From Candidatus Kaiserbacteria bacterium (GTDB taxonomy: Bacteria > Patescibacteriota > Minisyncoccia > Phycocordibacterales > UBA2100), in NCBI GenBank assembly GCA_016432285.1, contig CP066682.1, positions 730,274 through 794,273 of the forward strand: a DNA stretch of 64,000 nt. The letters run 5' to 3'. The notes under the pieces are model-generated. The model did no database searches. It saw only the letters and a list, made by a program, of their open reading frames with translations, and was not told the origin of the DNA. The position numbers and the translations under genes are program-made. Each line of letters begins with the position of its first letter. Position 1 is the stretch's first letter. Positions 42,386 through 62,567 of the stretch are shown here, in pieces.

Positions 42386-43390
42386 CTACAGGCGCTTTGC
42401 CACCTCGGCGACGTGCTCCAGAAGCGTATGCGTGTACCCGGCCTCGTTGTCGTACCATGCCATTACCTTCACCAGCGTGCCGTCGACGACGCGCGTCATG
42501 GAAAGATCGGCGATCGCGCCGTAGGGCTGCCCGAGAATGTCGGAGGAGACGAGCGGCTCGTCGGTGATCGCAAACACGCGCTTCCATCGGTCGCTCGAAG
42601 CGGCTTTTCGTAAGGCGTCGTTGATTTCTTCCACGGTGGTCGGGCGTTTCGATACGAAGGTCACGTCGACAAGCGAGCCCGCGGGCACCGGGACGCGCAC
42701 CGAAATGCCGTCGAACTTGCCTTTCAGCTGCGGATACGCGAGCGCGGTCGCCTTTGCCGCACCGGTGGAGGTGGGCACGAGGTTTTGCGCCGCAGCGCGA
42801 CTCTCGCGAAGATCCTTGGCGCGGCCGCCGTCGACGATCGCTTGCGAGGCGGTGTAGCCGTGCGTCGTATTCAAAATCGCGCGCTCCACGCCCACCGCTT
42901 CGTCGAGAATGCCGACGAGCGGAGAGGCCGCGTTGGTGGTGCAGGAGGCATTGGAGGTGATGTCGCACTTCCCAAACTGCTCCTCGTTGGCGCCGATGAG
43001 AATCGTCTCCACGCCCTCGCCCTTGCCGGGAGCGGAGATCACCACCTTCTTGGCACCGGCCATGAGGTGCGCCTTCGCTTTTTCACCGTCGGTAAAGAGG
43101 CCAGTCGACTCGATTACGATGTCGACGCCGAGAGCTTTCCACGGCAGCGCCGCAGGATCCTTCTCGGTGTACACCGGCACGGTTGTGCCGTCAATCACGA
43201 TGGCCTTGTCGGCGGCTGCGACGGAAAACGGCGCCCTCCCGTACACGGTGTCATATTTCAAAAGGTACGCGAGGCTTTCCGGCGGAGTGATGTCGTTGAC
43301 GGCGACGAGCTCCATGTCCTTCCGGGCGTGCATCGCCCGCGCGAGCCCCCTGCCGATTCTGCCAAAACCGTTGATCGCGATTTTCACCAT
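42386..43390 (-). CDS. gap: Glyceraldehyde-3-phosphate dehydrogenase
   Basis: MVKIAINGFGRIGRGLARA and the catalytic region ASCTTNAASP. 334 aa. Confidence 0.9.
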   Translation of the reverse strand: MVKIAINGFGRIGRGLARAMHARKDMELVAVNDITPPESLAYLLKYDTVYGRAPFSVAAADKAIVIDGTTVPVYTEKDPAALPWKALGVDIVIESTGLFTDGEKAKAHLMAGAKKVVISAPGKGEGVETILIGANEEQFGKCDITSNASCTTNAASPLVGILDEAVGVERAILNTTHGYTASQAIVDGGRAKDLRESRAAAQNLVPTSTGAAKATALAYPQLKGKFDGISVRVPVPAGSLVDVTFVSKRPTTVEEINDALRKAASSDRWKRVFAITDEPLVSSDILGQPYGAIADLSMTRVVDGTLVKVMAWYDNEAGYTHTLLEHVAEVAKRL

Positions 43391-43416
43391 GCGCAGAATG
43401 ATACTATATCTCCGCG

Positions 43417-44412
43417 CTATTCGCTCGTTGTGGATGTGGCTGTATCAGTGGTTTCTGATTCGGGCTGCGGCTCTGGTTCTGGTTCTGCGCTCGGTGTGCT
43501 TGAGGCCGTTTCTTGCACGATCGGCGCATACGGGTCGTAAATCTCCACGATGCGCGTGGCCGTGCCCCTGTTGCCGCTGCTGTCGCTCGCCTCATACCGC
43601 ACCGTCCATGTCCCCGGCGCCGACGTGTCGATGGAAATCGCCGGCGTGTGGATGTCGTTGAGGTAGAGATCGATGAGGATCGACTGGCCGTCCGCTCCGG
43701 TCGCAAAGGCGCCGAGGTCGGCGTAGCGGTATCCCTTTTCGATGCGCGCCGGATTTTTGCCGAGCACCTGCACGTTGATCGTGCCGCCCGAAGCGGGCGC
43801 GGTGCTCACGCTTCCGCCACCCGAATCTCCCGAAGATGCGCTTCCGGAAGAAGCGTCAGAGCTCGTGGAAGCGATCGGCGCGGGCGGCGTCACGACCGGC
43901 TGATAGCCGGGGATCACTTCCGAGCTATCGTCGAGGAGCGCACCGACAAGCCCGCCGTATGTGGTGGCGACCGTTTTTTGCGTGATGCTCTTGCGCTCGA
44001 TCGCCTGCACCTCCTTGAGGAAGGAGATCTCGCGATCGATTTTCTGCTTCAGCTGCGCCATGGCGTAGAGGCCAAGGTCGCGGTACGGCCCGAGATCGGC
44101 CTTCGAGACGTTCATCGTCTCTTCGACGATGACGTCGCGCCACACGTAATCTTGGAGCGCGATCGTTCTGAACTGATACTTCACGTAGTAGTTGTCTTGA
44201 TCTTCTGTCACTTCCACAATCTGCACTTTGGGAGACCAGCTCGTAAAGTCTTTGCCCGAAATGTAGGTGTTGTCGACCGAGACGACTGTTTCCGATGCCG
44301 AGTAGATCGCCTCCGGATTCGTGGCCGCGAAGACGCCTCCCGCACCGAGGACGAGAATGCCGATCGCAATCGGCACGGCGTTGTGGTACTGCAAGAAGTG
44401 CCAAAATGACAT
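43417..44412 (-). CDS. Membrane-anchored protein with an Ig-like C-terminal domain and an acidic Ser/Thr/Pro/Glu tail
   Basis: Start MSFWHFLQYHNAVPIAIGILVLGAGGVFAA (TM). Then a Ser-rich linker, then the domain ...INVQVLGKNPARIEKGYRYADLGAFATGADGQSILIDLYLNDIHTPAISIDTSAPGTWTVRYEASDSSGNRGTATRIVEIYD, then the tail PSAEPEPEPQPESETTD. Confidence 0.55.
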   Translation of the reverse strand: MSFWHFLQYHNAVPIAIGILVLGAGGVFAATNPEAIYSASETVVSVDNTYISGKDFTSWSPKVQIVEVTEDQDNYYVKYQFRTIALQDYVWRDVIVEETMNVSKADLGPYRDLGLYAMAQLKQKIDREISFLKEVQAIERKSITQKTVATTYGGLVGALLDDSSEVIPGYQPVVTPPAPIASTSSDASSGSASSGDSGGGSVSTAPASGGTINVQVLGKNPARIEKGYRYADLGAFATGADGQSILIDLYLNDIHTPAISIDTSAPGTWTVRYEASDSSGNRGTATRIVEIYDPYAPIVQETASSTPSAEPEPEPQPESETTDTATSTTSE

Positions 44413-44479
44413 GGTCCCTTTCAGTATATAAGAGGAATGCCTCTCGCGTGGCATTGTCCCCACGAGTACGTCTTGTATT

Positions 44480-45637
44480 TCATCGCGTAGTGCAGAAAAG
44501 GTCGAACGACCGCCCGGCCGTCGCACAGAAACGTTTATACTCCCTCGTGTTTGACCCGAAAATAAACTCCGCCCGCAATACGAGAGCCTCGGCGCACGAA
44601 TGTCGAAGATCTACAGGCGCGGATTCGCAGAGACTGAGGGCTCGCTCGCCTTGCGAGCGGTCTTCCTCGAGCACAGCCTGCGCGACGGCAGTGAGGCATG
44701 CGAGACGCCTTTCTGCACCAACCGCTTTGCAGGCACGAACCGCTCCTCCGGGATTATCGAGCGACATTCTGCCAAGAATGGCGAACGCCGTGTCGTAGCA
44801 GTACCCTTGCTGCTCTTGATTTGGGTACCCTTCGCAAAACGAATCAATGCCGACTCCGGCGACAATCCCCTCCCGCGCGTATGGCCAACTTTCTCTGAGG
44901 CAGGCGCCTTCATACTGATCCTCCCCAAACTGCGAACAATACGTGCGGACGGTCGTGGTCGACGGTTTTTGAGACATGCGTTCGATTAACAAAAAATCAT
45001 CCGGTTCCAGGGGTTGGTAAATCTGCATGAAGACCCCTTCGAGACACATGCGTTGTGTACGATCGGACGTCGTTTTTTTGCACAATTGGAGCGAGCGCGG
45101 AATGTCTGCATCGGTGAGAAACACATACAGATGCCCGAGACCGTGATAGCAGATAGCCTTGTCGAGCTCGCTCGGATTCCAAGAACCTCGCGGCTCGCAT
45201 GCGCGGGAGAAATCCGGTATGAGTTTCTGGAGCGCATCCTCGGTCAGCACTTCCGCTCGGAACCTTCCTCCGATGACGCCGTGCATGAACCCGTTCGAGC
45301 ACAGACCGTCCGGGGGATTCAGCGGAATCGCGTCGAGCCACGCATCCGGATTGTCGGCAACGATGCGCTCTCCCAGCTTGTGCGCGAGCACATGGCAGAA
45401 CTGGTAACCAGAATCTGCGCGCCGAATTTCTCGAACGATCGCGAAGATAGCCTTCAATGGCATCTCGGGATAGAGAGCGGCCACTTCGCGCTCATAGCAG
45501 AACGCATGATTCGATTCCTTGTCGCATGCGGCGATGATGGAACGGGCACTCTCAGTCGTTGTTTCGCGTACGAACGCGAATACGCCGAGAAGCAGCAGCA
45601 TCGAGAACAAGAGAGGTAGCGCCGTGCTTCTTTGCAT
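44480..45637 (-). CDS. Secreted or membrane Cys-rich protein, paralog A (CYHGLGH motif)
   Basis: N-terminal hydrophobic leader (ALPLLFSMLLLLGVFAFV), about 16 Cys residues, and the motifs CHVLAHKLGE, CSNGFMHGVIGG and AICYHGLGHLYVF, which are shared with the downstream paralog. The start is uncertain (45637, 45646 or 45658). Confidence 0.55.
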   Translation of the reverse strand: MQRSTALPLLFSMLLLLGVFAFVRETTTESARSIIAACDKESNHAFCYEREVAALYPEMPLKAIFAIVREIRRADSGYQFCHVLAHKLGERIVADNPDAWLDAIPLNPPDGLCSNGFMHGVIGGRFRAEVLTEDALQKLIPDFSRACEPRGSWNPSELDKAICYHGLGHLYVFLTDADIPRSLQLCKKTTSDRTQRMCLEGVFMQIYQPLEPDDFLLIERMSQKPSTTTVRTYCSQFGEDQYEGACLRESWPYAREGIVAGVGIDSFCEGYPNQEQQGYCYDTAFAILGRMSLDNPGGAVRACKAVGAERRLACLTAVAQAVLEEDRSQGERALSLCESAPVDLRHSCAEALVLRAEFIFGSNTREYKRFCATAGRSFDLFCTTR

Positions 45638-45645
45638 ATCGCGCA

Positions 45646-46815
45646 TCAAACAGAGCACGAAGCTCTATATTCGACGGGCAATCTGTCGCAAAGCTTCCGG
45701 GTGCGCCCGCCTCCATATGAGCGTATGTCTTTCGAGAGGCGCATATAGCACGCCCCTCTCATTTGATCACTCACGAGTGCGCAGAAGCGAAACGACGCCT
45801 CCGGATCATTTTCACCGCCCCAAAAGATTGAGGCGACCGCGTCCGCAATACATGCGTCCCGCCCGTCAGCAGCAACAATCAGCCCACACCAGGAAATCGC
45901 CGTGCGAAATTCGTCGTCGGAAAAGCGGTCGACTTTGCGGATGTCTCGCTTCCCGGCGAGCGGAACAAACTCTTTGCCGAATCCCCCGAAGCACGCGTCG
46001 CGCCAATCCTGCCGCTCCTGCGGTATCGCCTCGCAGTACGACGACGCCGTACCGAAGAAAGCCGGATCTGGCGCCCCAAGACGTGCGCCTGCCACCTCGA
46101 GGAGGCGCGGCGTCAGGTAGATGAGACAGAGTGTCTTGGTCGGATCAGGCAGGAGATCGCTCATGCAGGGTGCGAGCGCATCGTTTGCGGAAAAATAGCG
46201 AACACGAGCTTTCATCCATGCGGATCGGTCGTGGCCCCCACCGCCCACGAGCTCCATGATCGCGCCGCCCACGCACTCCGTGTACTCCTGCTGTCCATGT
46301 CCGTCGGTACCTGTCTTTTTACAGAAATCGACCGTCGCAGGAAGATCGTAATCAAAAAAGGCGAAGACGCCGTGCCCGAGGCCGTGGTAGCACATGGTGT
46401 ACGCACCCGAGCGCCCGGGCGCAGTTTCGCAGGCTTCGCGGATACGCGGGAGCGCGGCCTCGCCGCCATATTCCTCGAGTGCGCCAATCACGATCGAGTG
46501 TGAGCACGCATTGCGAAAATCCTGCGAGCAGAGCGCGATTCCCTCGACACCTTTCTGCCGATAAAGTTCGTCGCCTACTGTATGCCCGAGGAGGTGGAGA
46601 TCGGTTTGCGGTGGGAGGGATGCAGCACGGAGCACCTCAAAGGCGTGCTCGGCACCCTTCTCCTTCGCAAGCGCAACGAATCGGTCTTGAATTTCCTGAA
46701 AATTGCGGGCGTCTTTCCCAATACGCTGCGCGTCCCAGGCACTTGATCCTGCGTTTAGAAGAAGTACCGAGACAAGTAGGAAAATAACAACCGCCACTCC
46801 CCTCCAGATCGTCAT
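45646..46815 (-). CDS. Secreted or membrane Cys-rich protein, paralog B (CYHGLGH motif)
   Basis: N-terminal TM (VAVVIFLLVSVLLLNAG). Motifs HLLGHTVGDE, TMCYHGLGHGVFAF and FCKKTGTD are colinear with paralog A. 389 aa. Confidence 0.55.
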   Translation of the reverse strand: MTIWRGVAVVIFLLVSVLLLNAGSSAWDAQRIGKDARNFQEIQDRFVALAKEKGAEHAFEVLRAASLPPQTDLHLLGHTVGDELYRQKGVEGIALCSQDFRNACSHSIVIGALEEYGGEAALPRIREACETAPGRSGAYTMCYHGLGHGVFAFFDYDLPATVDFCKKTGTDGHGQQEYTECVGGAIMELVGGGGHDRSAWMKARVRYFSANDALAPCMSDLLPDPTKTLCLIYLTPRLLEVAGARLGAPDPAFFGTASSYCEAIPQERQDWRDACFGGFGKEFVPLAGKRDIRKVDRFSDDEFRTAISWCGLIVAADGRDACIADAVASIFWGGENDPEASFRFCALVSDQMRGACYMRLSKDIRSYGGGRTRKLCDRLPVEYRASCSV

Positions 46816-46840
46816 GCGACAATTATAAACTTTCGAGATC

Positions 46841-47380
46841 TCAGAATTTGAACAGAACGGTGCCGATCATCTCCGAGGGCTGGATTGTGCCCCAGACCCG
46901 GCTGTCTTCACTTTGCGCGCGGTTGTCTCCCATGAGGAAATAATCTTCAGGACCCAGCTTCATTTCAAAATCCGGGCCGTTCCCCGCCTTTTCCCCTTCT
47001 TCCCATTTCTCAATGTTCGCCCCTTTCTCCTCTGCTCCCCCTTCCTCCCATTTTCCCCCTTTTCCCCTTTCTGCTGTCACCGATCCGTTCGCAATGCGGA
47101 TCGTTTCGTTCGGCAGTCCGATTACGCGCTTGAGGATGATCGGGTGCTGCGGATTACGCGGATCGCGGAACACCACCGGCGAGCCGCGGAAAAGCCCGAT
47201 AAGCCGCGGCGAGATCTTTTCCACGAGCAGGTAATCACCTTCCTGAAAAGTCGGCTGCATAGAAATTCCCGTCACGATATACGGCCGTATCAGAAAAGGC
47301 AGGAGCAAAATCAGAGTTGCAACAACGGTCAAGACTGGATCCCTCCGAATTCCTGGGAGGTTTAGCCTTCCAATTTTCAT
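46841..47380 (-). CDS. lepB: Signal peptidase I
   Basis: SPase I boxes: GISMQPT (Ser nucleophile), KRVIGLPNETI (Lys general base box) and GDNRAQSEDSRVWG. It has an unusual Gly/Glu/Lys-rich insertion (GKGGKWEEGGAEEKGANIEKWEEGEKAG). The ATG at 47378-47380 overlaps the RAYT3 stop (ATGA), and the first about 10 codons are REP-derived. Confidence 0.8.
   Translation of the reverse strand: MKIGRLNLPGIRRDPVLTVVATLILLLPFLIRPYIVTGISMQPTFQEGDYLLVEKISPRLIGLFRGSPVVFRDPRNPQHPIILKRVIGLPNETIRIANGSVTAERGKGGKWEEGGAEEKGANIEKWEEGEKAGNGPDFEMKLGPEDYFLMGDNRAQSEDSRVWGTIQPSEMIGTVLFKF
47352..47373. repeat. REP (family 3) copy at the RAYT3/lepB junction
   Basis: cctgggaggtttagccttccaa with arms gggagg/ccttcc. It lies within the first codons of lepB. 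Confidence 0.8.
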
Positions 47381-48036
47381 ACGCCGACATCTTTGTATCG
47401 TAGCCAATAATCCACATGATCCTGAACTTCCCTAGCGCTCGATAGGTACCCGGGGAAAGCTCGCGGAGAAGTAATTACGTGACGGTTGTTGATATATTCT
47501 CCCAGGCTCGAATACTGATACTCGCTTACATGTCTCTGTAGTTTCCCAAAGTCGCGTGCTCCGAATTTCTTCCAATTTGGATCTTTCAATTTGGCTGGAT
47601 TTAGATGAATATAGGAAAATAAATATTTAGCATACGCATCACCCTCCACGTGCGAGGCCTTAAACGTCCCCTGAAAAAGCGCGCCACTTCGCTCATGTTT
47701 TTCATTGAAATACATCGTATACGCAGTCTGTAGTCTCTGCATAAATTTCGAGATACCGCCGTCGACCAGCGGTGTCAGATACAGATGAAAATGATTGGGC
47801 ATCAAACAATACGCGCCTATTGCCACTAAAGAACTGGAAGGTTTAGCCTCCCAGATCCGGCTCGAGGTTTTAGAAGAGAATAGAAAATCGATTCTTTTGT
47901 TTTCTCTATCATTGAGCAGGAAAAGGTACACCAGAAATCTTTTGTACTCCGCTGGCGACATGAACACTCGGCGTTTATCAACGCCTCTATTGTAAATGTG
48001 ATAGAACTCGCCTTCTGCAAAGGTGATGCGTCTCAT
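47377..48036 (-). CDS. REP-associated tyrosine transposase (RAYT), copy 3, with a REP-derived in-frame insert
   Basis: MRRITFAEGEFYHIYNRGVDKRRVF...GAYCLMPNHFHLYLTP (HuH)...SEYQYSSLGEY (Tyr). The internal REP at 47834-47854 encodes ...RIWEAKPSSS... Its start ATG overlaps the stop of the giant upstream ORF, and its stop overlaps the lepB ATG. Confidence 0.85.
   Translation of the reverse strand: MRRITFAEGEFYHIYNRGVDKRRVFMSPAEYKRFLVYLFLLNDRENKRIDFLFSSKTSSRIWEAKPSSSLVAIGAYCLMPNHFHLYLTPLVDGGISKFMQRLQTAYTMYFNEKHERSGALFQGTFKASHVEGDAYAKYLFSYIHLNPAKLKDPNWKKFGARDFGKLQRHVSEYQYSSLGEYINNRHVITSPRAFPGYLSSAREVQDHVDYWLRYKDVGV
47834..47854. repeat. REP (family 3) copy embedded in-frame within the RAYT3 coding sequence
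   Basis: ctggaaggtttagcctcccag. The reading frame is maintained across it. It sits in the same protein loop as the embedded REP in RAYT2. Confidence 0.8.
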
Positions 48037-51000
48037 AGAGTGGGCGGATCGCGGCGCTCACTGGAAGGTTTAGCCTTCCAACGGGAGCGGGGCGGAGCGT
48101 CTACTGGAAGGTTTAGCCTTCCAGTGGGGGGCTTCCCTCTTGGGACGGGGAGGATGAAGAAGGACATGCCGATGAGGAAGGCGATGGCTTGGACGAAAGA
48201 GGAGACGACGGAGGCGGCGGAAGCGGCGGAGTATTTGAAGGGCTGCTCGGCAAATGCCATGTACACGTACGTCCCCCCGCTCGCATTTGCACCAGCTGCC
48301 GTGTTTCGCTGCTTGAACCCATTGGCGAGAAAATCCATATCGTTGCAGGACGCGGTTTCCGCTGCGTTGGACTCCAATCCAAAACACGGACTGATCGGAT
48401 TACTCGTATCTCGCGCCGCATCGTATGTATTCCAAGAGTATCCGAGCGTGTCTGTCCGTTTGATCACTACGTACTTAGGTTTGAACCCCGTGTACACAAA
48501 CGGCCCATCGGCCGAGCCGTTGCCGGTGTAGGAGCCGAAGTCGGAGAAGCCGGAGATTTCATCAAAAAGATAGGCGACATAGTTGTTGCCGCTGGTATTC
48601 ACATCAGCATTGGTACCGAGCGAGAAGACGGATGCGGTCGGCGCGGTGTCGTTCCAGTAGGTGGCATCGTCGGCGGTCGCGGCTGTGCCGTTCATCAAGA
48701 GGTAATCGGTCTCCGGCGCTGAAGTATTGGCAGCGTGGTAGACCGCCCAGTCGTTGGTCGCGCCGCGGTCTTTTACGATCATAAATTCTGGTGCAGAAGA
48801 GAGCGAATGGCTGATTGTGCGATTGGCACCGGTGCCGGCGTACGGCACGATATCGAATCCGCTCGTCGGATCTTCCTTCCAAAGCCACGAGATGTAGTTG
48901 TTGCCGCTTGTGTTGAAGAGCGAATTTGTGCCGAGCGTGAAGCCGTTTTCCAAGAATGCGGTGAGTGCCGATGCCGAGCTCGTCTCAATCGTCGTCGCGT
49001 TTGAAGAAAGATACGGAAACGTACTGCGTAGCGAATCGAAGAGCCCGTGCGCATTCGCGCTCGTTCTGTCTTTTATCCATGTGAGCGTCGGCGTGAAGTC
49101 GAGCCCCGTCACCGAGAGCGCGGCCCCCGTCCCCGTGTACGTGAGCGCATCGAAGTAATCATCGGGCTGCGTAATCGTCGGCGTAGGAAGATTCGTGGTC
49201 GAGAGGGCTTTGAAATCCGTCGGTGGTGCGTATTGGAAGTACCCTCCTGCCGATGAGCGGTATGGAAGTACCGTTGCTGTTGATGTCGGCGAAGAAGACT
49301 GGCCGAAGTTGAAATTGTACGAATGAGTCTGCCCGCTGGTTTGGCCAGCACCCGCGCCAATGAAGAGCGGGCCAGTGAGACCAGTAAATGCCGAGTTCGT
49401 GCCCGCTGCCGGATCACCGCTCGCCTGCCACGTGCCATTTTTTGAAAACCAAATCTTTCCGTTATCCAAATCGAGCGCAACGCCAATAACGTCGTTGGTC
49501 GTAAAGGTGTCGCCATAGGCGCTGTCACTGCTGCTATTTCGCTTGTTTCCACCACCTGCGTACGTGTACGCGAGATAATTGCTCTCGAGAATACAGTTTT
49601 GAACGGATGACGCGCCGATGAGATATCCTCCGCTAACGCCCGTAGTTCCGGTCGGGACGATCTCGGCGTACCATTTGCCCGATGTGGGTCCGATGGAAGA
49701 GCGACCGAATGTATAACAAGCCGGCGACGCGGGAAAGCTGTCTATCGTTGCCGTGAGGTTTCCTTGAGCAGCCGTCAGATCACTCGACGAATTTGCCAGT
49801 ATGTTTAGAGTCGCAGACCCATTCGTCGGGGAATCCTTGACGTTGTCGGTCGCGTCGAGGTTGTTGGCCGTCCAGTCATTGTTGTTGCTACTCGTATCGT
49901 CGCCGGGGCTGGTGGAGGTGAGCGGCAGGTGGAATCCATTAGTGCCATACGTCCCCGAATATGTCTTCGGTCGCCAGTAGCCCGATGCGTCGTATTCGCC
50001 GAAGTCGGAGGGGGTGAGTGCTTGTCCGTCGATGGCGTAGAAATCCGCAAGGTAGCCGTCGTAGTAAGAGGTCCCGCTATGCTGTTTGCCGAAAGCGTGT
50101 ATGACATTGTCGAGAACGTTCACGTCCGAGTTTTGCGTCATTGATGTATAGCCGGAGCCCGACCACGTTTGTGCAACGCCATTGACCCAAAGCCGGATTC
50201 TATCCGCGGCAGTTGCCTGCGTACTGTCTACGGTAAAGACAATGTGGAGCCACGCACCTGGATCGCGAAACTTCGCGTTTGTTGTATAGCTCCAGGTCTC
50301 ATTACCTGCATAGCCATACAACGTATCGCTGGTCGTAAACCGGAGGCCGTCTGCCGAGTATGCCGACCAGTTGATAAGAAATTGCTCGGTCCCCAGATTT
50401 GCCCGCTTGACCCAAAAGCTGAACGTCGCTGTCTTGCCCGCACCCGTCCCCGCAGATGAGAACGTTTTGGTTAGACTCGCACTATCGTCATCATTGAAAC
50501 GCGTGCTCGATGCGATGGTGAGGTTGTACGCTTGCGCGGATTGCTGGAAGGGCTGTTCGGCGAATGCGGCGTAGACGTACGTGGCACCACTGGCATTGTA
50601 GTTGGCATCCGTCGCACGCGGCTTGAATCCGTTTGAGAGAAAATCCATCTGCCTACTTGATCCGTCGTCTGCGTTTGTCAGATTGGCGTAGATCATGATG
50701 TCGCGGAGATTACCGTCGCCAGCAGCGCTACGTCGGTTGTCCCAGATGTACCAGCCGTTCGTTGAGGCACTGTCGCTTCTTTTTACAAGCAAGAACGCCG
50801 GCTTGAATCCCGTATACACGAACGGCCCATCGCTTGAGCCGTTGCCGGTGTAGGAGCCAAAAGATGAGTAGCCGGTGGTAGAGGCGAAGAGGTAGGCGAC
50901 GTAGTTGTTGCCGCTTGTATTTACATCCGCGTTGGTGCCGAGCGAGAAGACGGATGCGGTCGGAGCCGTATCGTTCCAATATGTAGCGTCGTCGGCAGTT

Positions 51001-53891
51001 GCCGCAGTCGAATTGAGAAGCAGGTAATCGGTCTTTGGGTCAGAGGTGTTTGCGGTGTGGTACACCGCCCAGTCGTTGGTGGCACCGCGATCTTTGATGA
51101 TCATAAAGTCGGGGGCGACACCGAGCGAGTGGCTCACGGTGCGATTGGCTCCCGTGCCCGTGTAATTCACGATGTCGAAGCGCGAGGTCGTGTCTTCTTT
51201 CCAGTTCCAGCTCACATAATTGTTGCCGCTCGTGTTGAAGAGCGCATTGGTGCCGAGGGTAAATCCATTCGAGAGGAAGCTCGTGAGCGTGGTCGAGGCA
51301 CCGCCGGTCTCCGCCGTCGTCGCATTGGACGAGAGGTACGGGAAGACGGAGCGGATGGCATCGAAGAGCCCGTGCGCGTTCGCGCTCGTGCGGTCTTTAA
51401 TCCAGACGAGGGAGGGGGTGAAGCCGAAGGATACGCCGGTCGAGACGTAGGTAATTTTGATGATGCCTTGCGCCCCCGCGCCGCCATTGCCCGTGGTCGT
51501 TCCTCCATATCCGCCCGAGCCGCCGCCGCCGCCGTAACTGCCCCCGTTGCCGCCGGCCGAACCGGTCGGCTCTTGCCCCGAACCGCCGGCGCCACCGCCA
51601 CCAGAGCCATGAGTGGCGTCCCACTCGGTACCGTTACCTCCGTTGCCGCCCGCCGCCCCCGCCACACCAGTGCCTCCGGCACCGCCTAAACCATTACCGC
51701 CCTGCCCGCCACTGGTGCCTGCAACTCCAGCACCAAGACCTGCAGTGCTAACGCCATCGGCACCCGCACCACTTGGGCCGCCGGCGCCACCACCACCCTG
51801 CCCGGCATAGTTGTTGGAGATATAGCCGCCTGTCCCGCCATTATATTTCGTACTCCCTACTGAAGCCGATGCAAGCCCGCCGGCTCCGGAACCCGTCAAG
51901 TAAACTGCACCATTGCCTGCCTTTGCACACACCGAAACAGTGTCGGCACAAGTGTTTGCTGACCCCGATGTCCGATTAAAGAATGTATCTGTTCCGGCAC
52001 TACCGTTCGACCCGTTGGTCGCGCCGCCTGCACCTCCTGCACCGACCTGAAAAGTGACGTTCCCGCCGGGAGTAAGAGAAAGATTTGATACTTTTGAATA
52101 AGCTCCGCCGCCGCCGCCGCCGTGGTCGCCATCGGCAGTCCCATCACGAACGCCGCCGCCGCCGCCGCCGATTACCTCAATAGTGTTGCTCGCATTGCCC
52201 CAATCGCTCGGCACCTGCCAAGTTTTGGCCGTCGTGTCCGTGAGATATACCGTGACGGTTTGCCCGGCAGTAGATGCGGCTGCCCGCGATACAGACTGTG
52301 CGGCGCCGCTACCCGTGTACGCCACCGCGTCAAAATAATTCTTCGGCACCGTGACCGCCGGCTCCGGAAGATTGGCAGTAGAAATTGCTTTGAACCCCGT
52401 CGGAGGCGTGTACATAAAGTAGCCGCCGGCTGCCGAGTCGTAGGTAAGTGTCGTTGCGGTGGAGGTCGGATTTTTGGATTGCCCGAAAATCAGATAGCTT
52501 TCCGTACTTCTGCTTACTCCAGCATCCATTCCTACTACCGGAAAAATCGGCGTGGTGGTGGAGATGTTGGAGAAGGCGGCATTTGTGCCCGCCACCGGAT
52601 CGGAAGATTCAAACCATCCGCTTTCGTCGCGGACGAAGAGTTTTCCGGCATCTGCATCGATCGCAACACCTAGGGTCAGATCGAGAGAACACGTGGAGTA
52701 CGTCGGCCCATACGCCGTGAGCGTCGTGTTGTAGATGGTGCACGATTTACCGCCGGTACACGAGCCCGAATTGGCGGGTAGCCATCCCCAGCTATTCGTA
52801 GTTTGCCCTACATATTCATCTTTACTTGCGTTGGTATTTGCTACTCCTACTTCAACATTGCAAATTCCCGACAAGTTCGCACTGCGAGCTTCAAAATACC
52901 ACTTGCCGCTGGTGATACCCATCGTTGCAAAATCGGTGGCGTTGGTACCGGTCCGGCTTGAATACAGATTGCCTTGAGAGTACGTCGAGATGGAAGGCTT
53001 GTTGAGCACGTTCAGGGTCGGATACATATTGGTCGGCGTATCAACCTCTTGATCCGTCGCGTTGATATTGTTGGCGGTCCAGTCGTTGTTTTGGCCGCTC
53101 ACGTCGTTACCAAGATCCGAGCCGCTCGCGAAATCAAGCTTAAAGCCGTTGGTGCCGTAGGTTCCGGTGTAGCTTTTGGGTCGCCAGTAGCCGTTGGCGT
53201 CCGTCTCGCCAAACGACGATGGCGTCAGCGCCTGGCCGTCGATCAGATAGACATCGGAAAGGTAACCATCAAAGTATGTTGAGTTTGAGTTACCGAATCG
53301 CCCTATTGCATGTGGATCCGTGCCATTTACTCTCGTGTCGACGTTTTGCGACGGGTCGTTTGCATCGCGAGCGATTCGCTGGCCATTCACATAAAATATG
53401 ACCCTGTCACCTGCGGTAGCTGCTGTCGTGTCCACAGCGACTACCACGTGCATCCATTGTGAAGGGTCTCGAAATACCGCGGTACTTTGTGTAGTCGGCG
53501 CGTTTGAACTGCTTTCTCGGCGTTGGAATTGGAGCTTATCGGAGTTGAAAGATATCGACGTGTGATGATCACCCGCCGTTGGTTCAGCGCTAAAGAGGAT
53601 ACCGTCTGTGAGATTCGCCCGCTTCACCCATGCACTCCACGTCCACGTCTTTTTATTTCCTGCGCTACTGGGCGTGCGCGACAGTCGAGCACTGTCGTCG
53701 TCGTTGAAGCGCGCGGAATTCGATATTGAATACGCGGCTTTGGCTTCCGGAAGCTGGAGGAGCACAAATTGCGTCGCAAATATCGCCAAGGAGATGAGAA
53801 GCGCGGTCGCGATACGGTGATGCCAGAGGTATCCCCCGATTGCGGGAATATATTTAGAGTTTAAAGATTTAAATGTTGGAAGCGGGAGCAT
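48033..53891 (-). CDS. Giant membrane-anchored surface protein (1952 aa) with two LamG-like (concanavalin-A-like lectin) domains in a duplicated ~800-aa super-repeat and a Gly-rich core
   Basis: N-terminal anchor (IATALLISLAIFATQFVLLQL). Two LamG-like jelly-roll signatures (TWTWSAWVKRANL...WMHVVVAVD...VIFYVNGQ and TATFSFWVKRANL...WLHIVFTVD...IRLWVNGV). A duplicated block ending NYVAYLF...FGSYTGNGS(A/S)DGPFVYTGFKP...YVYMAFAEQPF. A central tract of about 250 aa that is more than 50% Gly (GGGGGVRDGTADGDHGGGGGGAYS...GGNGGSYGGGGGSGGYGG). The last about 40 codons are REP-derived. Confidence 0.7.
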   Translation of the reverse strand: MLPLPTFKSLNSKYIPAIGGYLWHHRIATALLISLAIFATQFVLLQLPEAKAAYSISNSARFNDDDSARLSRTPSSAGNKKTWTWSAWVKRANLTDGILFSAEPTAGDHHTSISFNSDKLQFQRRESSSNAPTTQSTAVFRDPSQWMHVVVAVDTTAATAGDRVIFYVNGQRIARDANDPSQNVDTRVNGTDPHAIGRFGNSNSTYFDGYLSDVYLIDGQALTPSSFGETDANGYWRPKSYTGTYGTNGFKLDFASGSDLGNDVSGQNNDWTANNINATDQEVDTPTNMYPTLNVLNKPSISTYSQGNLYSSRTGTNATDFATMGITSGKWYFEARSANLSGICNVEVGVANTNASKDEYVGQTTNSWGWLPANSGSCTGGKSCTIYNTTLTAYGPTYSTCSLDLTLGVAIDADAGKLFVRDESGWFESSDPVAGTNAAFSNISTTTPIFPVVGMDAGVSRSTESYLIFGQSKNPTSTATTLTYDSAAGGYFMYTPPTGFKAISTANLPEPAVTVPKNYFDAVAYTGSGAAQSVSRAAASTAGQTVTVYLTDTTAKTWQVPSDWGNASNTIEVIGGGGGGVRDGTADGDHGGGGGGAYSKVSNLSLTPGGNVTFQVGAGGAGGATNGSNGSAGTDTFFNRTSGSANTCADTVSVCAKAGNGAVYLTGSGAGGLASASVGSTKYNGGTGGYISNNYAGQGGGGAGGPSGAGADGVSTAGLGAGVAGTSGGQGGNGLGGAGGTGVAGAAGGNGGNGTEWDATHGSGGGGAGGSGQEPTGSAGGNGGSYGGGGGSGGYGGTTTGNGGAGAQGIIKITYVSTGVSFGFTPSLVWIKDRTSANAHGLFDAIRSVFPYLSSNATTAETGGASTTLTSFLSNGFTLGTNALFNTSGNNYVSWNWKEDTTSRFDIVNYTGTGANRTVSHSLGVAPDFMIIKDRGATNDWAVYHTANTSDPKTDYLLLNSTAATADDATYWNDTAPTASVFSLGTNADVNTSGNNYVAYLFASTTGYSSFGSYTGNGSSDGPFVYTGFKPAFLLVKRSDSASTNGWYIWDNRRSAAGDGNLRDIMIYANLTNADDGSSRQMDFLSNGFKPRATDANYNASGATYVYAAFAEQPFQQSAQAYNLTIASSTRFNDDDSASLTKTFSSAGTGAGKTATFSFWVKRANLGTEQFLINWSAYSADGLRFTTSDTLYGYAGNETWSYTTNAKFRDPGAWLHIVFTVDSTQATAADRIRLWVNGVAQTWSGSGYTSMTQNSDVNVLDNVIHAFGKQHSGTSYYDGYLADFYAIDGQALTPSDFGEYDASGYWRPKTYSGTYGTNGFHLPLTSTSPGDDTSSNNNDWTANNLDATDNVKDSPTNGSATLNILANSSSDLTAAQGNLTATIDSFPASPACYTFGRSSIGPTSGKWYAEIVPTGTTGVSGGYLIGASSVQNCILESNYLAYTYAGGGNKRNSSSDSAYGDTFTTNDVIGVALDLDNGKIWFSKNGTWQASGDPAAGTNSAFTGLTGPLFIGAGAGQTSGQTHSYNFNFGQSSSPTSTATVLPYRSSAGGYFQYAPPTDFKALSTTNLPTPTITQPDDYFDALTYTGTGAALSVTGLDFTPTLTWIKDRTSANAHGLFDSLRSTFPYLSSNATTIETSSASALTAFLENGFTLGTNSLFNTSGNNYISWLWKEDPTSGFDIVPYAGTGANRTISHSLSSAPEFMIVKDRGATNDWAVYHAANTSAPETDYLLMNGTAATADDATYWNDTAPTASVFSLGTNADVNTSGNNYVAYLFDEISGFSDFGSYTGNGSADGPFVYTGFKPKYVVIKRTDTLGYSWNTYDAARDTSNPISPCFGLESNAAETASCNDMDFLANGFKQRNTAAGANASGGTYVYMAFAEQPFKYSAASAASVVSSFVQAIAFLIGMSFFILPVPRGKPPTGRLNLPVDAPPRSRWKAKPSSERRDPPTL
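48061..48124. repeat. Two REP (family 3) copies at the 3' end of the giant gene
   Basis: ctggaaggtttagccttcca (48061-48080) and ctggaaggtttagccttccag (48104-48124). The giant ORF reads through both (...GRLNLPV... and ...WKAKPSS...) before stopping at 48033. Confidence 0.85.
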
Positions 53892-53892
53892 A

Positions 53893-54384
53893 TCAGGATT
53901 TTATATCACCTCCCGGTGTGTAGAGGTGTGGATGAATCTTTGAAAGCTCCTTGCGTGCATTGCGCATAAACTCTTGCGCTTCTCGCTCGTCCTTGCTCAA
54001 TTCCCGTTTGCGTTGCAAACCGCTGTGCGGAGATGATTTGAGTGCCCTGATGAACGACGCGGTAAGTCTCGATGCCTGCTCTGCCAAATCATTTAAATAT
54101 TTAAATGTTTGAATATTCAAATACCCTATGTCATTTGCGATGTAGAGCTGTGCCCGCACCTCGCCGCACGATGCTTTTGCAATATAGAGGTAATTCAAAA
54201 ACCCCTCGCGTGTTCCCGACTCAAATCCTTCCGCGATGTTTGATACGACCGATACCAAAGCTCGCTGTATTTGATCGGTGAATCCTCTATCGTGACAACC
54301 ACGAAACACCTTGTAGACTTCGCGTGCTAGTTCTCGCCCCTTTTTCCAGGCCAGCAGCTCTTCAAATCTGTGCACAGTCGCCAT
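53893..54384 (-). CDS. Four-helix-bundle protein (TIGR02436-like; the family often called '23S rRNA intervening sequence protein')
   Basis: A 163-aa protein with the characteristic pattern ...FTDQIQRALVSVVSNIAEGFESGTREGFLNYLYIAKASCGEVRAQLYIANDIGYL... Visibly lower GC than its neighbours, and wedged 1 nt from the next gene's start. Confidence 0.6.
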   Translation of the reverse strand: MATVHRFEELLAWKKGRELAREVYKVFRGCHDRGFTDQIQRALVSVVSNIAEGFESGTREGFLNYLYIAKASCGEVRAQLYIANDIGYLNIQTFKYLNDLAEQASRLTASFIRALKSSPHSGLQRKRELSKDEREAQEFMRNARKELSKIHPHLYTPGGDIKS

Positions 54385-54387
54385 GCA

Positions 54388-57300
54388 CTAGAAGTTGGTC
54401 GCGGCAGCGCCGAATACTTGCGTCGCGGAAGAAGTGGCGTAGGTAGCGATGAATGTCGCGAGGTCGCACTTATTTGCAGTCGTGGTGAGGGTTGGCGCCG
54501 TGCCGCTTTGCCAGTTGACGCTGCCCCACGTGACAGTGCGCGATCCTGTGCCGTCCTGACACACCACAAGCCGCAAGATCTGTCCGGCGACATAGTTGGA
54601 GAAGTTGATTGTGCGGTTGCCACCGAGCGTTACGCGCTGCTGGTTGCCGTCACGCCAGTTGACTGTGATCGTCGCTCCATCAGTGAGCGCGTTCTCCACC
54701 GTCGTGATGGCGCCTCCGGCACCCACGGTGAATTTCGCCCACGGACTTGAGGTGCCCACACCGAGCTTGCCGTCGCTCGTGAAGACGAGGAGCGACTGAT
54801 TCGTCGTCGAAGCGATTTGCAAGAAGTTGCTTGTATCGTCGCTCGTCTCGATCGTGAGTTTGTATGCGGGCGTAGATGTGCCGATGCCGATTTTATTTTC
54901 CGCGACAATATTTCCGGTGCCAGTGGGATTGCCCGAAGGGCACGAGCCGCCGGTGCAAGACCAGAGATTATCGTCGTTGAGGAAGATGTCGTTGCCCGAC
55001 GGATCGATCGTTAGATCACCCGAAGCGTCGGTGAGGAATTGCGTGTAGCGTCCGGCATCGTACGCGAGTGCGAGTTGGGCGGTAGAGACCGCATCGGCGA
55101 CCGAAAGCTTGCGGAAAGGCGTCGTCGTGCCGACACCGAGGTACCCGGCGCTCGAAAGGCGCATCGCCTCGGTGAGCGAGCCCGACTGGAGCGTTGAGAA
55201 GACGAGATCCCCTTGGCCAGCTCCATAGTTCTGCTGGAGGATCGACGCGATTGCGGCCGTCGAAGTGCTGTTGCCGAGCACGTCGAGCGCTCGGAAGGTG
55301 AGGCGCGAAGCGCTCGAGGTGGCGCTCGCGAGATTCGAGAGGAAGAGGTTGTCGAAGGTGGAACCGCTCGAAGCGCCTGCAATCTCCATCTTAGCTGACG
55401 GAGTCGTGGTGCCGACACCGAAGTTGCCAGACGTCGTAAGGAAGATTGTAGAAGTTGCAGTAAGACTTGTTCCTGCTGCTTGGTAGAACGGAAGTTGTCC
55501 TTGCGTGCCGCTTCCGACGCTCCCGCCGAGACACGATCCGTTGACCGAAAAGCAGCCATCGTTGAGGTTGATGCCGTTCGCGGCAGTGGAGGTGGCACTG
55601 CCTGTCAGATTGAAAGCGGTCATTTGCAGGGCTCCGTACACTGTTGAGGTTCCACTATTTATAAAGTTGGCCACGTTGCCGATTGAAAAGACTGACGCGG
55701 GCGAGGAGGTACCGATCCCCACGAGCCCGTTGGCGTCGATAGCGAAGACGCTGGACGTAGCAAAACCCGAAGTGGAGGAAGAGATCGCAAAGAGCGGTGC
55801 CGTACCTCCCGCAGCGCCCGCGACCGAGAGCCGGGCAAAGGGCGAAGTGGTGCCCACACCGAAGCCCGTCGATGTCCAGCGCGTCAGCTCCGAGCCGCCG
55901 ACGATCGCGTTGATGTTGCCGGAGACGCCGGCCGCAAAACCGGTCGTGGAATCGCCGCGGCTGACGATGATATTTGGAGTCGTTTGTGTAACTCCGCTTG
56001 CATTCAAGAGCGAGAAACCCGCGGAGTTTGTCGAGCTCAAGGTGCCGCCGGTCGTGATCGCGCTTCCCACAGTGAGTCGAGCCGTACCTGCGGAGGAAAT
56101 AACGACCGAGCCACTGCTGTTGTAAATTCCCGAGTTTGAGTTGTTGGTAAAGGCGAGTGCGGGCGAGGATGCCGAGCCATCAGCGAGATAGCCGACGCCA
56201 GCGATCGAAAGCGCGGTGGTGGAAGCGTACGGGAACGTGTTGGCGGAGGTGGAGGTGACGGTAATCGCGCCGGTGGTGTCGATGGTCGTCGTTGCAGTGG
56301 CGCCGAAATACGCAGGGCCGTACGAAGAGAAGAGTGTCGTGGAAGCGCGCGGCAGTGTGGTGAGGCCGCTTACCGTGAGCGTTCCCGCACCCGAAATATT
56401 ACCCGCAGTGTCGATTGTGGTTGTGGCGGTCGAACCGAAGTAGGCGGGACCGTAGGCGGAGAGAAGAGTCGTCGAGGCGCGCGGCAGTGTGGTGAGGCCG
56501 CTCACCGTGAGCGATGAGAGCACCGTGGCACCCGCGTCGAGCGTATCGGCACCGATGTTGATCGCTCCGAAACCGGTGGTGATCTGACCGCTGTCGAGCG
56601 CTCCGACCGAAGTGAGCGACGAGCCGACTACGCTTGACCCGAGCGTCGTGCCGTTTAGCGCGAGCGCGTTGTTGATGAGGAACGCGCCGCCCGAAGCGAG
56701 GTTGAGGTTGCCGCCAGTGAGCGTGATGCCGCCCGAGAAAGTAGAGGTGGCGCTGTTGCCCACGATCGAGGTGGTGGCTGTACCGCCGATACTCAAGGTG
56801 CCGTAGCTTGTTGCGGACGAGAAGGTACTGGCACCCGCGGTGAGAGCACTGGATCCGATGTTGATGGAACTAAATCCGGAGCCGATGGACCCGGCGGTGA
56901 GTGCGCCGACTGTCGTGATCGAGGTCTGACCAACGTACGTAGAAGAAATATCGATCGCGTCGGCCGTCACCGAAATCCTGTTGGCCGTTCCCACCGCATT
57001 CACCGTATTACCGCTTTTGGTGAGACCATCGCCCGCGGTGATCTCGGATGATCCCGAGAATTGAGTGAATGAGAGCGAGGTGCTGTCGAGCGTGATGGTG
57101 GCCGGAGTAATCAGGGACCAGCCGGTGTTGGCGTATGCGGTTCCCTCAGTTACGAACGTGTACATCCCGGTAATCACTTCCGAATTCTCATTGGCGTCTG
57201 ACGAGCGCGACCACGCGCCAGCCGCGACTACATAGATGCCGTTGGCGCTCGCCGTACTCTGCCCCATCACCAACACGCGATCGCCCGCGATCGCCGAGAC

Positions 57301-60300
57301 GCCATCGATCGTCTGCGTGCCGGAGAGCGTGATATTGGAAGTGGTCGCGAGGCGCACCGATGCTCTCACCGAAAGCCCCTGCGCGATCGCGTCGACGTAC
57401 GCCTTCGTCGCTGCTTCTTGTGCGGAAGTCGGATCCGCAAGACCGGTGATCTTCTTGCCTCCGAATGCCACATCACCCGAAAACGTGGTGGTCGCCGCCG
57501 AGAGTGTGCCCGTAACCGACACATTGCCCGTGAAAGATCCCGTGCCATTGATGGTGAGATTGCCGGACCCGGTGATTGCGGAGCCGACGATCGAAGAGAA
57601 GGTCGCGGCACCGCCGGTGATCGGCGACGAGCCGATGTCGATAGCGCCAAAACCGCTGCCGAGCGCTCCGGATGTGAGCGTGCCGACCGTCGTGATCGAC
57701 GTTTGTCCGACGTAGCTCGAGGAGATATCGACGCTGTCAGCGTTGACCGTGATGCGGTTGCTCGTCCCGACCACGTCGAGCGTGTTGCCAGATTTAGTGA
57801 GCCCACTGCCAGCCGTGATCTGCCCCGCACCGGAGAACTGCGTGAATGCGAGGAGCGAGGTACCAAGCGTAATCGGATCCGCCGTTGTGAGCACCCAGCC
57901 CGAGTTCGCGTTGATCGTGCCTTCAGAAATGAACGTGAAGAGTCCGGAGCCGACCTCCGCGTTCGTGTCCGCGTCTTCCGAGCGGGTCCACACACCGGCA
58001 GACACCGCATACAGACCGTTCTTCGTTTGGTCGGTCTGATTTTTCACAAGCACGCGATCACCCGCCACGAGCGACACGCCGTCGACCGTCTGCTCACCGG
58101 AGAGTGTGATGTTCGCCGTGGTGGCCGCGCGCACCGAATCCTTGAGGTCAAGTCCTTGCGCCACCGAATCGACGTAGGATTTGTTGGCCGCGTCGCCGCT
58201 GTCGCTCGGCGTGGCGACGCCCGTGATCTTTTTCGTATTGAGCTGTAGCTCGCCCGAGAGAGTGGTGGTCGCGGCGGCGAGCGTGGTGCCGACCGAAAGC
58301 GAGCTAGAGAGTGTGGCGGCGCCTGTCACACCGAGCGTGCCGCCGATCGAGGCGTTGTTGGTGACAGAGAGTCCGGTGCCCGTGCCTGCAGCAGTGAGCG
58401 TGCCGTCGGCGCGGAGTGTCGAGTAAAAGCGGCTCGCGCCGGTAGCTTGGAGCGTCGAGGAGGCCGCAAATGCACTCGTCAGCCCGAGCGTGCCCGCGAT
58501 CGTCGTATTGCCTGTTGCGGGGGCGACGATGAAGCTGCTGCCGCCCACGGTGAAGTTGCCGGTCGTCACGTCGAGGCCATTCGTGGCGTCGACGTTGCCC
58601 GCAAACGTAACCTGCCCCGTGCCCGTCTGGTTGATAGGCCCAGTCGCAGAAAATGTGAGTGAGCTACCGCCCGAGATCGTAAGATCACCCGAGATGTCAG
58701 TGGCTACGTCGACATCGAGTCCGGTCGTGGGAGCAGCAGTGCCGATCCCAACGCGGCCGGAGTTTTGCTGCACGACGAATTTGCTGGTCTGTGCCGTGAT
58801 GCCGCCCGCAAAGGTCGAGGTCGCACTCGAGGAAGTCGCGACCAGATTCGCGGCGTCGAGGAAGGAGGAGAAGCGGCCGCCGCCCGTTACTTCGAAGGGA
58901 TAGCTGGGAGAAGCGGTGAGCACTCCGAGCCTTCCCGAGGAGTCGAAGGTGGATGTCGCGGAGCCGCCAAAGTATGCGCGGTCGAAGACCGAAAGCCGTG
59001 TCGTCGATGCTCCGGAGGAAAAGAGCTGCAACGCGCTCCACGAATTCGAGACGCTCGGCGACGCATAGTCGCTTCCTGCGGTGGCCACCGAAACGAGGCC
59101 GACCGAAGAGGTTTTCAAGATACCGCTTGGCGAACCGGAGACCGTAAGATTCGTCGTGCTTGCCGTGCCGAAATAGCCGGTGCCGGAAACCGAGAGCGCG
59201 GTCGACGACGCATACGGAAATACGTTGGCAAAGACCGCTGTCACGGTGATCGCGCCCGTCGTACCGATTGTGGTCGTGCCAGTCGCGCCGAAATACGAAG
59301 GGCCGTACGAGGAGAGAAGTGTTGTCGATGCGCGCGCGAATGACGCGAGGCCCGTGGCGCTCAAGGTGCCGCCCACCGAGAGGTTGCCCGATGCGTCAAG
59401 CGACGATGTCGCCGTCCCGCCGAAGTACGCCGTGCCGAAATTGGAAAAGTTCGTACTGGACGCGCCTGCGGAGAAGAGCTGGAGCGCGGTCCAGGTGTTG
59501 GCAGATGTCGTCCCAAACGCGGTGGAAAGCGTACCGGAAGTGAACACCAAACCATTGCCAACGGTCGCAGCTTGCACGCCCCCGGAGCTATTCGTCGACA
59601 GCAGCGAAGAAGGCGCGCCGGAAATAGTTAGATTGCTTGTTGAGGCAGTCGTGAAGTAGCCGCTTGTGGCGCTAAAGGCGGTCGAGCTTCCGTAGGTGAG
59701 GGTAAGCTTACCTGCCGAGTCGAACGACGATGTCGCCGTCCCGCCGAAGTACGCCGTGCCGAAATTGGAAAAGTTCGTACTGGACGCTCCCGCAGAAAAA
59801 AGCTGCAAGGCGGTCCAGGTGTTGGCATCGGAGAGCGAAGCGCCTCCACCGCCTCCCACGATGCACGTGCCGTCGACCGCAAAACAACCATCGGAAATAT
59901 CGATGCCGTTTGCAAAAGTCGTGGTTGCCGAACCTGTAACCGCAAGACGTGTTGATGTCGCGTTGCCAAATGAGACGTCGCCGGAGATGCTGAGAGAGGA
60001 CCCGGAAATTGATGCGCCGCTGATCGAACCGCCGGAGAATGTCGAGTTGGTAATGCTGACGCTCGAGAGGTTGTCGATACGCTGCGTTACCGCGATCATG
60101 TTGACCACGCCCCCCGAAGCAACGGGCGACGACGCGCTCGTGATTCCGTAGATCTGTGCAACAAGCTTGTTGTCGAGTTCGTTCAGCTTCGATTCCAAAA
60201 TCGATTCAGTGATGCCACCGACACTCACAATACGCTCCGTCTCAATCACGCGTTCGATGACCGGCTGGTTGATGATGGTTTGCGCAAGCGCCGCGCCGCC

Positions 60301-62460: not shown

Positions 62461-62567
62461 ACAAAAAGTATATCCTGTCTTTCACCGTGCTGATTCGCCC
62501 ATGGGGACAGCGATGTCTCGGCACGGAAGTAAGCCAATCTCGGACCCGAGATACGAAATCTCGAAAG

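Follow-up and report, generated by a model that had tools for sequence, protein, structure and literature searches.

An exported tandem LamG-SPRY-DUF7483 protein and its giant neighbor in Candidatus Kaiserbacteria: a probable attachment device of the cell surface, taken over from phages or common to both

In a 64,000-nucleotide stretch of DNA from a Candidatus Kaiserbacteria bacterium (assembly GCA_016432285.1, contig CP066682.1, positions 730,274 to 794,273 of the forward strand; here called the window), a minus-strand open reading frame (ORF) at positions 48033-53891 encodes a protein of 1952 amino acids with a signal peptide and two LamG-SPRY-DUF7483 modules. Together with the 2256-residue giant encoded next to it, this protein probably serves the cell as a surface device for attachment, which either came from phages or is shared with them. 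With moderate confidence, we consider the 1952-residue protein to be a Sec-exported multi-lectin receptor-binding protein of a candidate phyla radiation (CPR) cell, which combines two phage host-recognition modules with one tumor necrosis factor (TNF)-like/glycine-rich domain and docks on the giant as a membrane-anchored fiber. One passage of PMC12206443 describes host recognition and binding by ultrasmall Patescibacteria as largely unknown, and large concanavalin A (ConA)-domain membrane proteins have been named as host-interaction candidates in these bacteria (PMC13059738).

The ORF starts with ATG, is uninterrupted, and begins 1 nucleotide past the stop codon of the preceding gene. The identical protein has already been deposited as hypothetical protein HYS26_04540 of a Candidatus Kaiserbacteria metagenome-assembled genome (MAG), where its contig measures 859 kb, and the ORF is a real gene. 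Pfam searches detected DUF7483 (PF24299, 624.5 bits versus a cut-off of 27, two full-length copies), Laminin_G_3 (PF13385, 68.1 bits versus 27.6, two stretches), and SPRY (PF00622, 56.8 bits versus 26.3), and each half is thus organized as LamG-SPRY-DUF7483. This agrees with the super-repeats with LamG-like domains described before, of which there are two of approximately 760 to 815 residues. Internal comparison of the three units of DUF7483 showed 35% identity between A and B (E 7e-14) and weaker similarity of B to C (E 1e-4) and of A to C (E 2e-4). The motif NYVAYLF...GSYTGNGS...DGPFVYTGFKP, which had been noticed in each half and left without a function, is located where unit B meets unit C and belongs to this Pfam family.

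The initial annotation had suggested predicting the structure of one super-repeat. An AlphaFold2 (AF2) model of module 2 (residues 1131-1890) is all-beta and confident (predicted local distance difference test [pLDDT] 87.8, predicted template modeling score 0.89), which suggests that the module forms one rigid three-domain unit. Its LamG domain was modeled as a beta-sandwich with approximately 13 strands; the fold match of this domain was not separated from the SPRY matches, and a sequence search of the PDB returned no match for it. The model confirms the SPRY fold by comparison with DDX1, Ash2L, and RanBP9/10: Foldseek matched the SPRY domains of DDX1, Ash2L, and RanBP proteins with target-normalized TM-scores of 0.77-0.81 (E 1e-10 for DDX1/Ash2L), and a profile search against the PDB gave an E value of 6e-21. 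For DUF7483, PDB profile and Foldseek searches matched no solved structure.

Export or a surface location, as proposed earlier, is supported by the N terminus, which contains a basic n-region with W-H-H-R, a 19-residue hydrophobic core, and a predicted cleavage site A50-K51-A52↓A53-Y54. Module 1 begins exactly at A53. The A/G↓AY(S/T)I junction is also present in relatives and in peptidase fusions described below. An LPXTG-type sortase-anchored adhesin was considered and rejected, with LP.[TSA]G found nowhere in the protein and relatives ending in FLxGMxF-COOH without a basic tail.

The link to phages emerges from the whole module. A phmmer search with the DUF7483 domain recovered 22,998 cluster representatives (clustering at 50% identity), of which 12,265 had E ≤ 1e-30. 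Proteins from 72 records of aquatic phages, including pelagiphages, cyanophages, and roseophages, aligned with the entire 760-residue module (96-100% of its length, 35-39% identity). The homolog of cyanophage SS120-1, CYYG_00029, is a free-standing protein of 781 amino acids labeled "virion structural protein," and that of pelagiphage HTVC011P is split into gp36 and gp37, labeled "tail fiber." In both phages the homolog directly follows the genes for an internal virion protein and a T7-type tail fiber. PHROG 19943 ("virion structural protein") matched with 1129 bits and PHROG 24898 with 452 bits, and BFVD fold matches agree with this. These marine T7-like phage proteins share the domain order over the whole module and the position directly after a fiber gene with a common C-terminal domain. 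They differ in having a single module, no signal peptide, and an end of the form ...PFKYxxAR, whereas in the window protein a signal peptide precedes two modules, the C-terminal motif is hydrophobic, and the genomic context is cellular. Among the 251 family proteins in hand, 170 lack an N-terminal hydrophobic segment and have an xR end, which classifies them as phage type.

The second strand of evidence comes from the giant, which lies upstream of the 1952-residue gene in the direction of transcription and not downstream, as had been stated. Its repetitive region matches tail-fiber PHROGs. The last ~250-500 residues are 43-52% identical to giants encoded upstream of a DUF7483 gene in seven CPR loci, and the last ~100 residues were also detected just upstream of a DUF7483 gene in many loci outside the conserved gene cassette introduced below. 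A jackhmmer search of the locus ORFs identified this C-terminal domain in 26 loci in all, including the true phage SS120-1, whose protein CYYG_00030 has a C terminus 41% identical to that of the giant over 68 residues (E 8e-11). Both proteins match phrog_9017 "tail fiber protein." CYYG_00030 carries a Phage_T7_tail N-terminal domain (55 bits), and its gene directly precedes the DUF7483 gene of that phage. CPR chromosomes and marine phages of the T7-like type therefore have a two-gene unit in common, in which this fiber C-terminal domain is encoded beside the DUF7483 gene. The CPR giant lacks the tail-attachment domain and has an HTH_17-like domain with a hydrophobic segment in its place.

Further features of the giant and of related N termini were observed. 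Residues ~975-1440 (57000-58300) comprise two tandem repeats of ~240 amino acids with the pattern K(K)ITG.A.P....DAA.K.YVD, which are similar to PHROGs labeled "head decoration" and "tail fiber" in phages (E 1e-42 to 1e-87, 145-294 bits) and to no Pfam family. The N terminus (residues 1-190) contains an excisionase-type HTH_17, a cytoplasmic DNA-binding-type domain on a giant ectoprotein. A 321-residue neighbor (61495-62460) contains HTH_17 twice, plus a hydrophobic segment at the C terminus, and in one DUF7483 homolog (P0018) a helix-turn-helix N terminus like that of the giant replaces the plain signal peptide.

The locus is cellular. The block from 43417 to 62460 is bordered on one side by GAPDH, followed by pentose-phosphate genes, including transketolase, shikimate-pathway genes, and ribosomal protein L25, and on the other by GatB. 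Pfam and PHROG scans of the locus found no capsid, portal, terminase, or tail genes. On a related 853-kb scaffold (L003) the same arrangement adjoins GAPDH, and a prophage is rejected on the basis of these housekeeping flanks and the synteny.

Moreover, the gene pair is part of a cassette consisting of the giant ORF, the two-module DUF7483 protein, a Peptidase_S26 signal peptidase, and a Bact_surface_Ig-like protein. We found this cassette in 10 fetched loci (L003/L004, L005, L006, L007, L012, L037, L039, L052, and L083), which represent nine places, L003 and L004 being near-identical contigs from two samples, and in none of about 60 other loci. The MAGs of L012, L037, L039, L052, and L083 are labeled Nomurabacteria or Saccharibacteria. 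The adhesin-like locus with a giant neighbor that had been suspected from the window alone is supported by this recurrence of the pairing in other CPR genomes. Among the cassette genes there is often also a small gene of the four-helix-bundle, Y1_Tnp, or NYN type. DUF7483 proteins of the cassette have an N-terminal signal peptide ending in A/G↓AY(S/T)I and a hydrophobic tail ending at FLxGMx(F/Y), with the variants ...F(F/M)EF and ...GMEI; both features are confined to them. We define this CPR cassette subfamily by the A/G↓AY(S/T)I signal peptide, at least two modules, adjoining S26 and Ig-like genes, and an upstream giant with the shared C-terminal domain, all of which the window protein displays.

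The catalytic motifs of the window S26 peptidase are intact. Two proteins of the family (P0027 and P0101) consist of a complete S26 peptidase fused in frame ahead of a signal-like segment, the AY junction, and a single LamG-SPRY-Gly_rich-DUF7483 module. Such fusions connect the peptidase with its presumed substrate in the manner of a Rosetta stone, and they support the idea that the neighboring S26 peptidase matures the 1952-residue protein after A52. S26-family peptidases are encoded beside large secreted surface-structure proteins in Bacillus subtilis SipW-TasA and in streptococcal pilus islands with SipA/LepA. The window peptidase likewise adjoins genes for large secreted surface proteins and differs from these in its bacterial Ser/Lys-type motifs.

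Other proteins are encoded in and around the cassette. The four-helix-bundle protein (23S_rRNA_IVP; in L007 also bAvd) is present in L006, L007, L012, L037, and L039 at varying cassette positions, and the L039 copy is 71% identical to that of the window. As the Avd-like bundle raised the possibility of a diversity-generating retroelement target, we looked for near-identical repeat pairs in 43000-62500 and found none, and the intragenic repeat differences are all synonymous; no reverse transcriptase was seen at the locus, the remainder of the window not having been scanned for one. Two adjacent ORFs between the S26 and Ig-like genes (44480-45658 and 45646-46815) encode cysteine-rich proteins of 392 and 389 amino acids with N-terminal hydrophobic segments, which resemble paralogs by eye only and have no Pfam, PHROG, or NCBIfam match. 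Downstream of the cassette on the CPR contig L006, a homolog of the phage tail-fiber adhesin GP38 (PF05268; 18183-19256) and a multi-LamG protein (19847-21649) are encoded, which suggests a wider phage-adhesin-like gene set at such loci. Oligoflexia MAG BroJett040 (L009, L028, L029, L044, L047, and L067) and Peribacteria MAG CAYFMG01 (11 loci) contain 6 to 11 separate DUF7483-module loci per MAG, with no S26/Ig-like cassette within the fetched flanks.

A further phage-like trait is a glycine-rich stretch inserted between SPRY and DUF7483, in module 1 only. Residues 585-812 are 38% Gly. The poly-Gly core of ~250 residues noted initially is thus present, but it lies inside module 1 and not between the halves. 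Scanned alone, the region aligned with positions 4-225 of the 226-position Gly_rich_2 (PF21722) profile at 22.0 bits, below the cut-off of 24.3, and counterpart inserts of homologs carry PF21722. It also matched the tail fiber of cyanophage Pam3 (7yfw/7ypx) by sequence (phmmer E 9e-6) and 7ypx_A by fold (Foldseek E 7.6e-5, probability 1.0), with weaker Foldseek matches to a tail-tip chain of mycobacteriophage Bxb1 and to the glycine-rich domain of ALK. Pam3 gp24's TNF-like/glycine-rich domain is a compact lattice of extended glycine motifs with a proposed role in host receptor recognition (PMC9608196). In light of the likeness to Pam3, the region most likely folds as a recognition domain, instead of serving as the flexible or beta-helical spacer envisaged earlier. 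In an AF2 model of residues 531-1125, pLDDT was ~80 in the first ~120 residues of the domain and below 50 in the glycine core. Pam3 gp24, the gp38 adhesin of phage S16, and the glycine-rich domain found in ALK have in common with it a TNF-like beta-sandwich followed by GGGGxGG-type motifs, and the Gly content of gp24 (39%) is close to that of the window domain. However, gp24 forms the distal end of a trimeric fiber, whereas the window domain is inserted internally, with SPRY before it and DUF7483 after it, and its lattice is putative. An RTX/beta-roll was also considered and rejected, since the nonapeptide pattern GGxGxDxUx is without match in the protein.

The two modules arose by an old duplication, to judge from several comparisons. 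At the protein level, residues 61-535 are 44% identical to 1131-1595 (E 6e-96) and residues 813-1116 are 68% identical to 1583-1886 (E 3e-131); both segments occur in the same order, and the two halves are indeed colinear. The best intragenic DNA pair, formed by the DUF7483 copies, is 74% identical over 630 nucleotides. A pair at 48560-48720 and 50850-51010 had been reported as about 85% identical and taken as a sign of recent intragenic duplication. These intervals contain a true high-identity pair, 48564-48686 and 50886-51008 (103 of 123 nucleotides, 84%), but as written they are 32 nucleotides out of register and 20% identical. The 123-nucleotide block encodes the same 41-residue peptide, TAATADDATYWNDTAPTASVFSLGTNADVNTSGNNYVAYLF, in both copies, and none of the 20 differences changes an amino acid. 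Four-fold degenerate sites were identical in 12 of 25 cases in the block (48%) and in 56 of 112 over the whole domain (50%), with 35% expected by chance from composition. This is what an old duplicate held under strong purifying selection would show. In neighbor-joining trees, the module 2 LamG-SPRY segment clusters with module 2 of P0004, P0006, and P0007 and not with its own module 1, and the two-module layout was found in at least 20 homologs from independent assemblies, while one homolog has three modules. Where SPRY meets DUF7483, homologs likewise carry inserts of 220-340 amino acids, some in one module and some in both. A recent duplication or gene conversion is rejected on the basis of the synonymous sites and the module trees, and an assembly artefact, which had been named as a possible objection, is unlikely given the same architecture in independent assemblies.

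At its 3' end, the gene deviates from its family. The C-terminal FLxGMx(F/Y) motif is present as AFLIGMSF and is followed by 39 residues of read-through into repetitive extragenic palindromic (REP)-like sequence, and these last 39 codons are absent from 21 of 21 relatives ending at the family C-terminal motif. The REP-like hairpin, CTGGAAGG-CTAAA-CCTTCCAG, occurs in four copies, all within 47352-48124 (0.17 expected by chance): two are translated in the last 39 codons, one lies inside a transposase ORF, and one at the start of the S26 ORF. It was absent from 86 of 86 fetched loci. In the relative L003, the S26 gene starts 3 nucleotides after the DUF7483 gene. The stop codon of the 1952-residue gene was probably displaced by insertion of the REP-like elements and a gene resembling REP-associated tyrosine transposases (RAYT-like).

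In the mechanism that we propose, the giant would be held in the membrane by its helix-turn-helix-plus-transmembrane N terminus in place of the phage tail-attachment domain and would form a long fiber. The 1952-residue protein would be exported, cleaved after A52 by the neighboring S26 peptidase, and docked on the distal C-terminal domain of the giant fiber, as is expected of its counterpart in phages. It would turn outward two LamG and two SPRY domains, which make four lectin-like domains, along with a tip of polyglycine and six DUF7483 units, and these could bind glycans or proteins on the envelope of the organism on which the epibiont lives. Long tail fibers of the T4/S16 type (gp37 plus gp38) likewise combine a long fiber with a separately encoded receptor-binding protein (PMC9608196), but a sequence relation to the window locus was established only through the glycine-rich domain, and attachment in the window is predicted. 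It is tempting to speculate, more tentatively, that in several CPR lineages the chromosomal cassette is a stable, "cellularized" phage host-recognition apparatus, in which a T7-type fiber has a helix-turn-helix domain and membrane anchor in place of tail attachment and a Sec-exported LamG-SPRY-DUF7483 adhesin is matured by a dedicated S26 peptidase, possibly an organelle by which ultrasmall epibionts recognize and hold their hosts.

Several points weigh against a fiber-docked receptor-binding protein. The case for a cellular role of any family member is computational, the labels "virion structural" and "tail fiber" on the phage homologs are database annotations not traced to proteomics, and docking on the fiber is suggested solely by the adjacency of the genes. 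For this Kaiserbacteria MAG, the epibiont lifestyle and a partner organism are presumed. The Gly_rich_2 score is just under the Pfam cut-off and the glycine core was modeled with low confidence, and the 39 extra residues behind the normally terminal C-motif could impair its role. The protein might instead be an independent secreted or wall-associated lectin or adhesin, matrix or S-layer-like, that does not cooperate physically with the giant, so that adjacency would reflect co-regulation. With its signal peptide and lectin domains it would suit this role, the conserved hydrophobic motif at its C terminus might act in its own right as a signal for anchoring or sorting, and the Ig-like membrane protein of the cassette could be the anchor instead. 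However, recurrence of the fiber C-terminal domain with a DUF7483 gene directly downstream in the 26 loci, a true phage among them, is hard to obtain from co-regulation alone, and we regard this explanation as rather unlikely, though not negligible.

Much less probable is that the gene belongs to a prophage, phage remnant, or tailocin-like tail-fiber locus and encodes a virion component. The strong PHROG and phage tblastn matches, the tail-fiber PHROG matches in the giant, and the nearby HTH_17/excisionase-like domains would fit, yet virion genes are lacking, the flanks are housekeeping genes, the same locus lies beside GAPDH in L003, and the signal peptide and membrane anchors are found here and in none of the phage-type homologs. 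An anti-phage decoy or receptor shield, that is, a surface mimic of phage receptor-binding proteins that occupies or masks receptors, would draw on homology to phage receptor-binding modules only; the locus shows no defense-system context (the PADLOC library was not scanned), and the putative long fiber and dedicated peptidase of the cassette suggest an outward-reaching structure, which leaves this proposal very little credit. Equally little can be given to a decaying gene or an assembly or sequence error, through repeat expansion or a lost stop codon. The unique 39-codon C-terminal extension through REP hairpins would agree with it, but the frame is intact over 5.9 kb, the halves are too divergent for assembler collapse or expansion, and the architecture recurs in many independent assemblies.

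With the gene already deposited and all its domains in Pfam, this is not a new kind of protein. We found no papers on DUF7483, and literature searches on CPR with SPRY, LamG, or tail fiber returned nothing specific and no description of the phage tail-fiber pairing or the S26 cassette. The cellular exported tandem module variant, the S26/Ig-like cassette, the C-terminal motif, and the pair of fiber and adhesin genes linking CPR and T7-like phages appear to be undescribed in the literature searched. Like the Patescibacteria ConA/LamG membrane proteins of PMC13059738, the window protein exceeds 1500 amino acids, is predicted to be secreted or membrane-bound, carries ConA-like domains, and belongs to an epibiont lineage. 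The locus provides a concrete conserved candidate for host binding by Patescibacteria, a fiber and a lectin adhesin of clear phage receptor-binding ancestry, that is testable in cultivable relatives bearing the cassette. It would also place DUF7483 in a functional setting for the first time, namely recognition of hosts or cells next to a tail fiber.

Coordinates of the features of the locus within the window are given in the table below.

Table 1. Features of the LamG-SPRY-DUF7483 locus (window coordinates; residue numbers refer to the respective protein)
Feature	Residues	Position	Strand	Basis or remarks
Bact_surface_Ig-like protein		43417..44526	-	N-terminal hydrophobic anchor; conserved cassette partner
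Signal peptidase I (Peptidase_S26)		46841..47407	-	SM.PT, KRVIGLP, and GDNR..S.DSR motifs; conserved cassette partner
Y1_Tnp/RAYT-like gene		47377..48036	-	REP-flanked; between 1952-residue gene and S26 gene
1952-residue ORF (HYS26_04540)		48033..53891	-	Signal peptide and two LamG-SPRY-DUF7483 modules
39-codon extension unique to this gene		48036..48152	-	Read-through into REP-like hairpin doublet (48060-48081, 48103-48124)
Conserved C-terminal hydrophobic tail ...SSFVQAIAFLIGMSF		48153..48221	-	Extreme C terminus in relatives
DUF7483 copy 2, three tandem units	1576-1890	48222..49166	-	Pfam; AF2 block pLDDT mostly ~90-97
Module 2 SPRY domain	1356-1575	49167..49826	-	Pfam SPRY at 1437-1530; Foldseek
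Module 2 LamG domain	1131-1355	49827..50501	-	Colinear with module 1; AF2 beta-sandwich, block pLDDT 68-94
DUF7483 copy 1, three ~100-residue units	813-1125	50517..51455	-	Pfam; internal repeat comparison
TNF-like and glycine-rich domain (putative polyglycine lattice type)	~555-812	51456..52229	-	Gly_rich_2; Pam3 fiber matches
Module 1 SPRY-like domain	~291-535	52287..53021	-	Weaker Pfam SPRY copy; colinear with module 2
Module 1 LamG (Laminin_G_3) jelly-roll	~53-290	53022..53735	-	PF13385, best stretch 74-224
Signal peptide	1-52	53736..53891	-	Sequence; predicted cleavage
Four-helix-bundle protein (23S_rRNA_IVP, Avd-like)		53893..54384	-	Recurrent in cassette
Giant, 2256 residues		54388..61158	-	N-terminal HTH_17-like domain, hydrophobic segment at ~168-190, long S/T/G/A-rich repeats with phage tail-fiber-like domains
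Giant C-terminal domain	~2143-2250	54409..54732	-	Common to SS120-1 T7-type tail fiber C terminus and ORFs upstream of DUF7483 genes

Apart from this locus, ARAGORN and Rfam scans of the window detected a tRNA-Thr (TGT) at 28369-28442 as the sole RNA gene.

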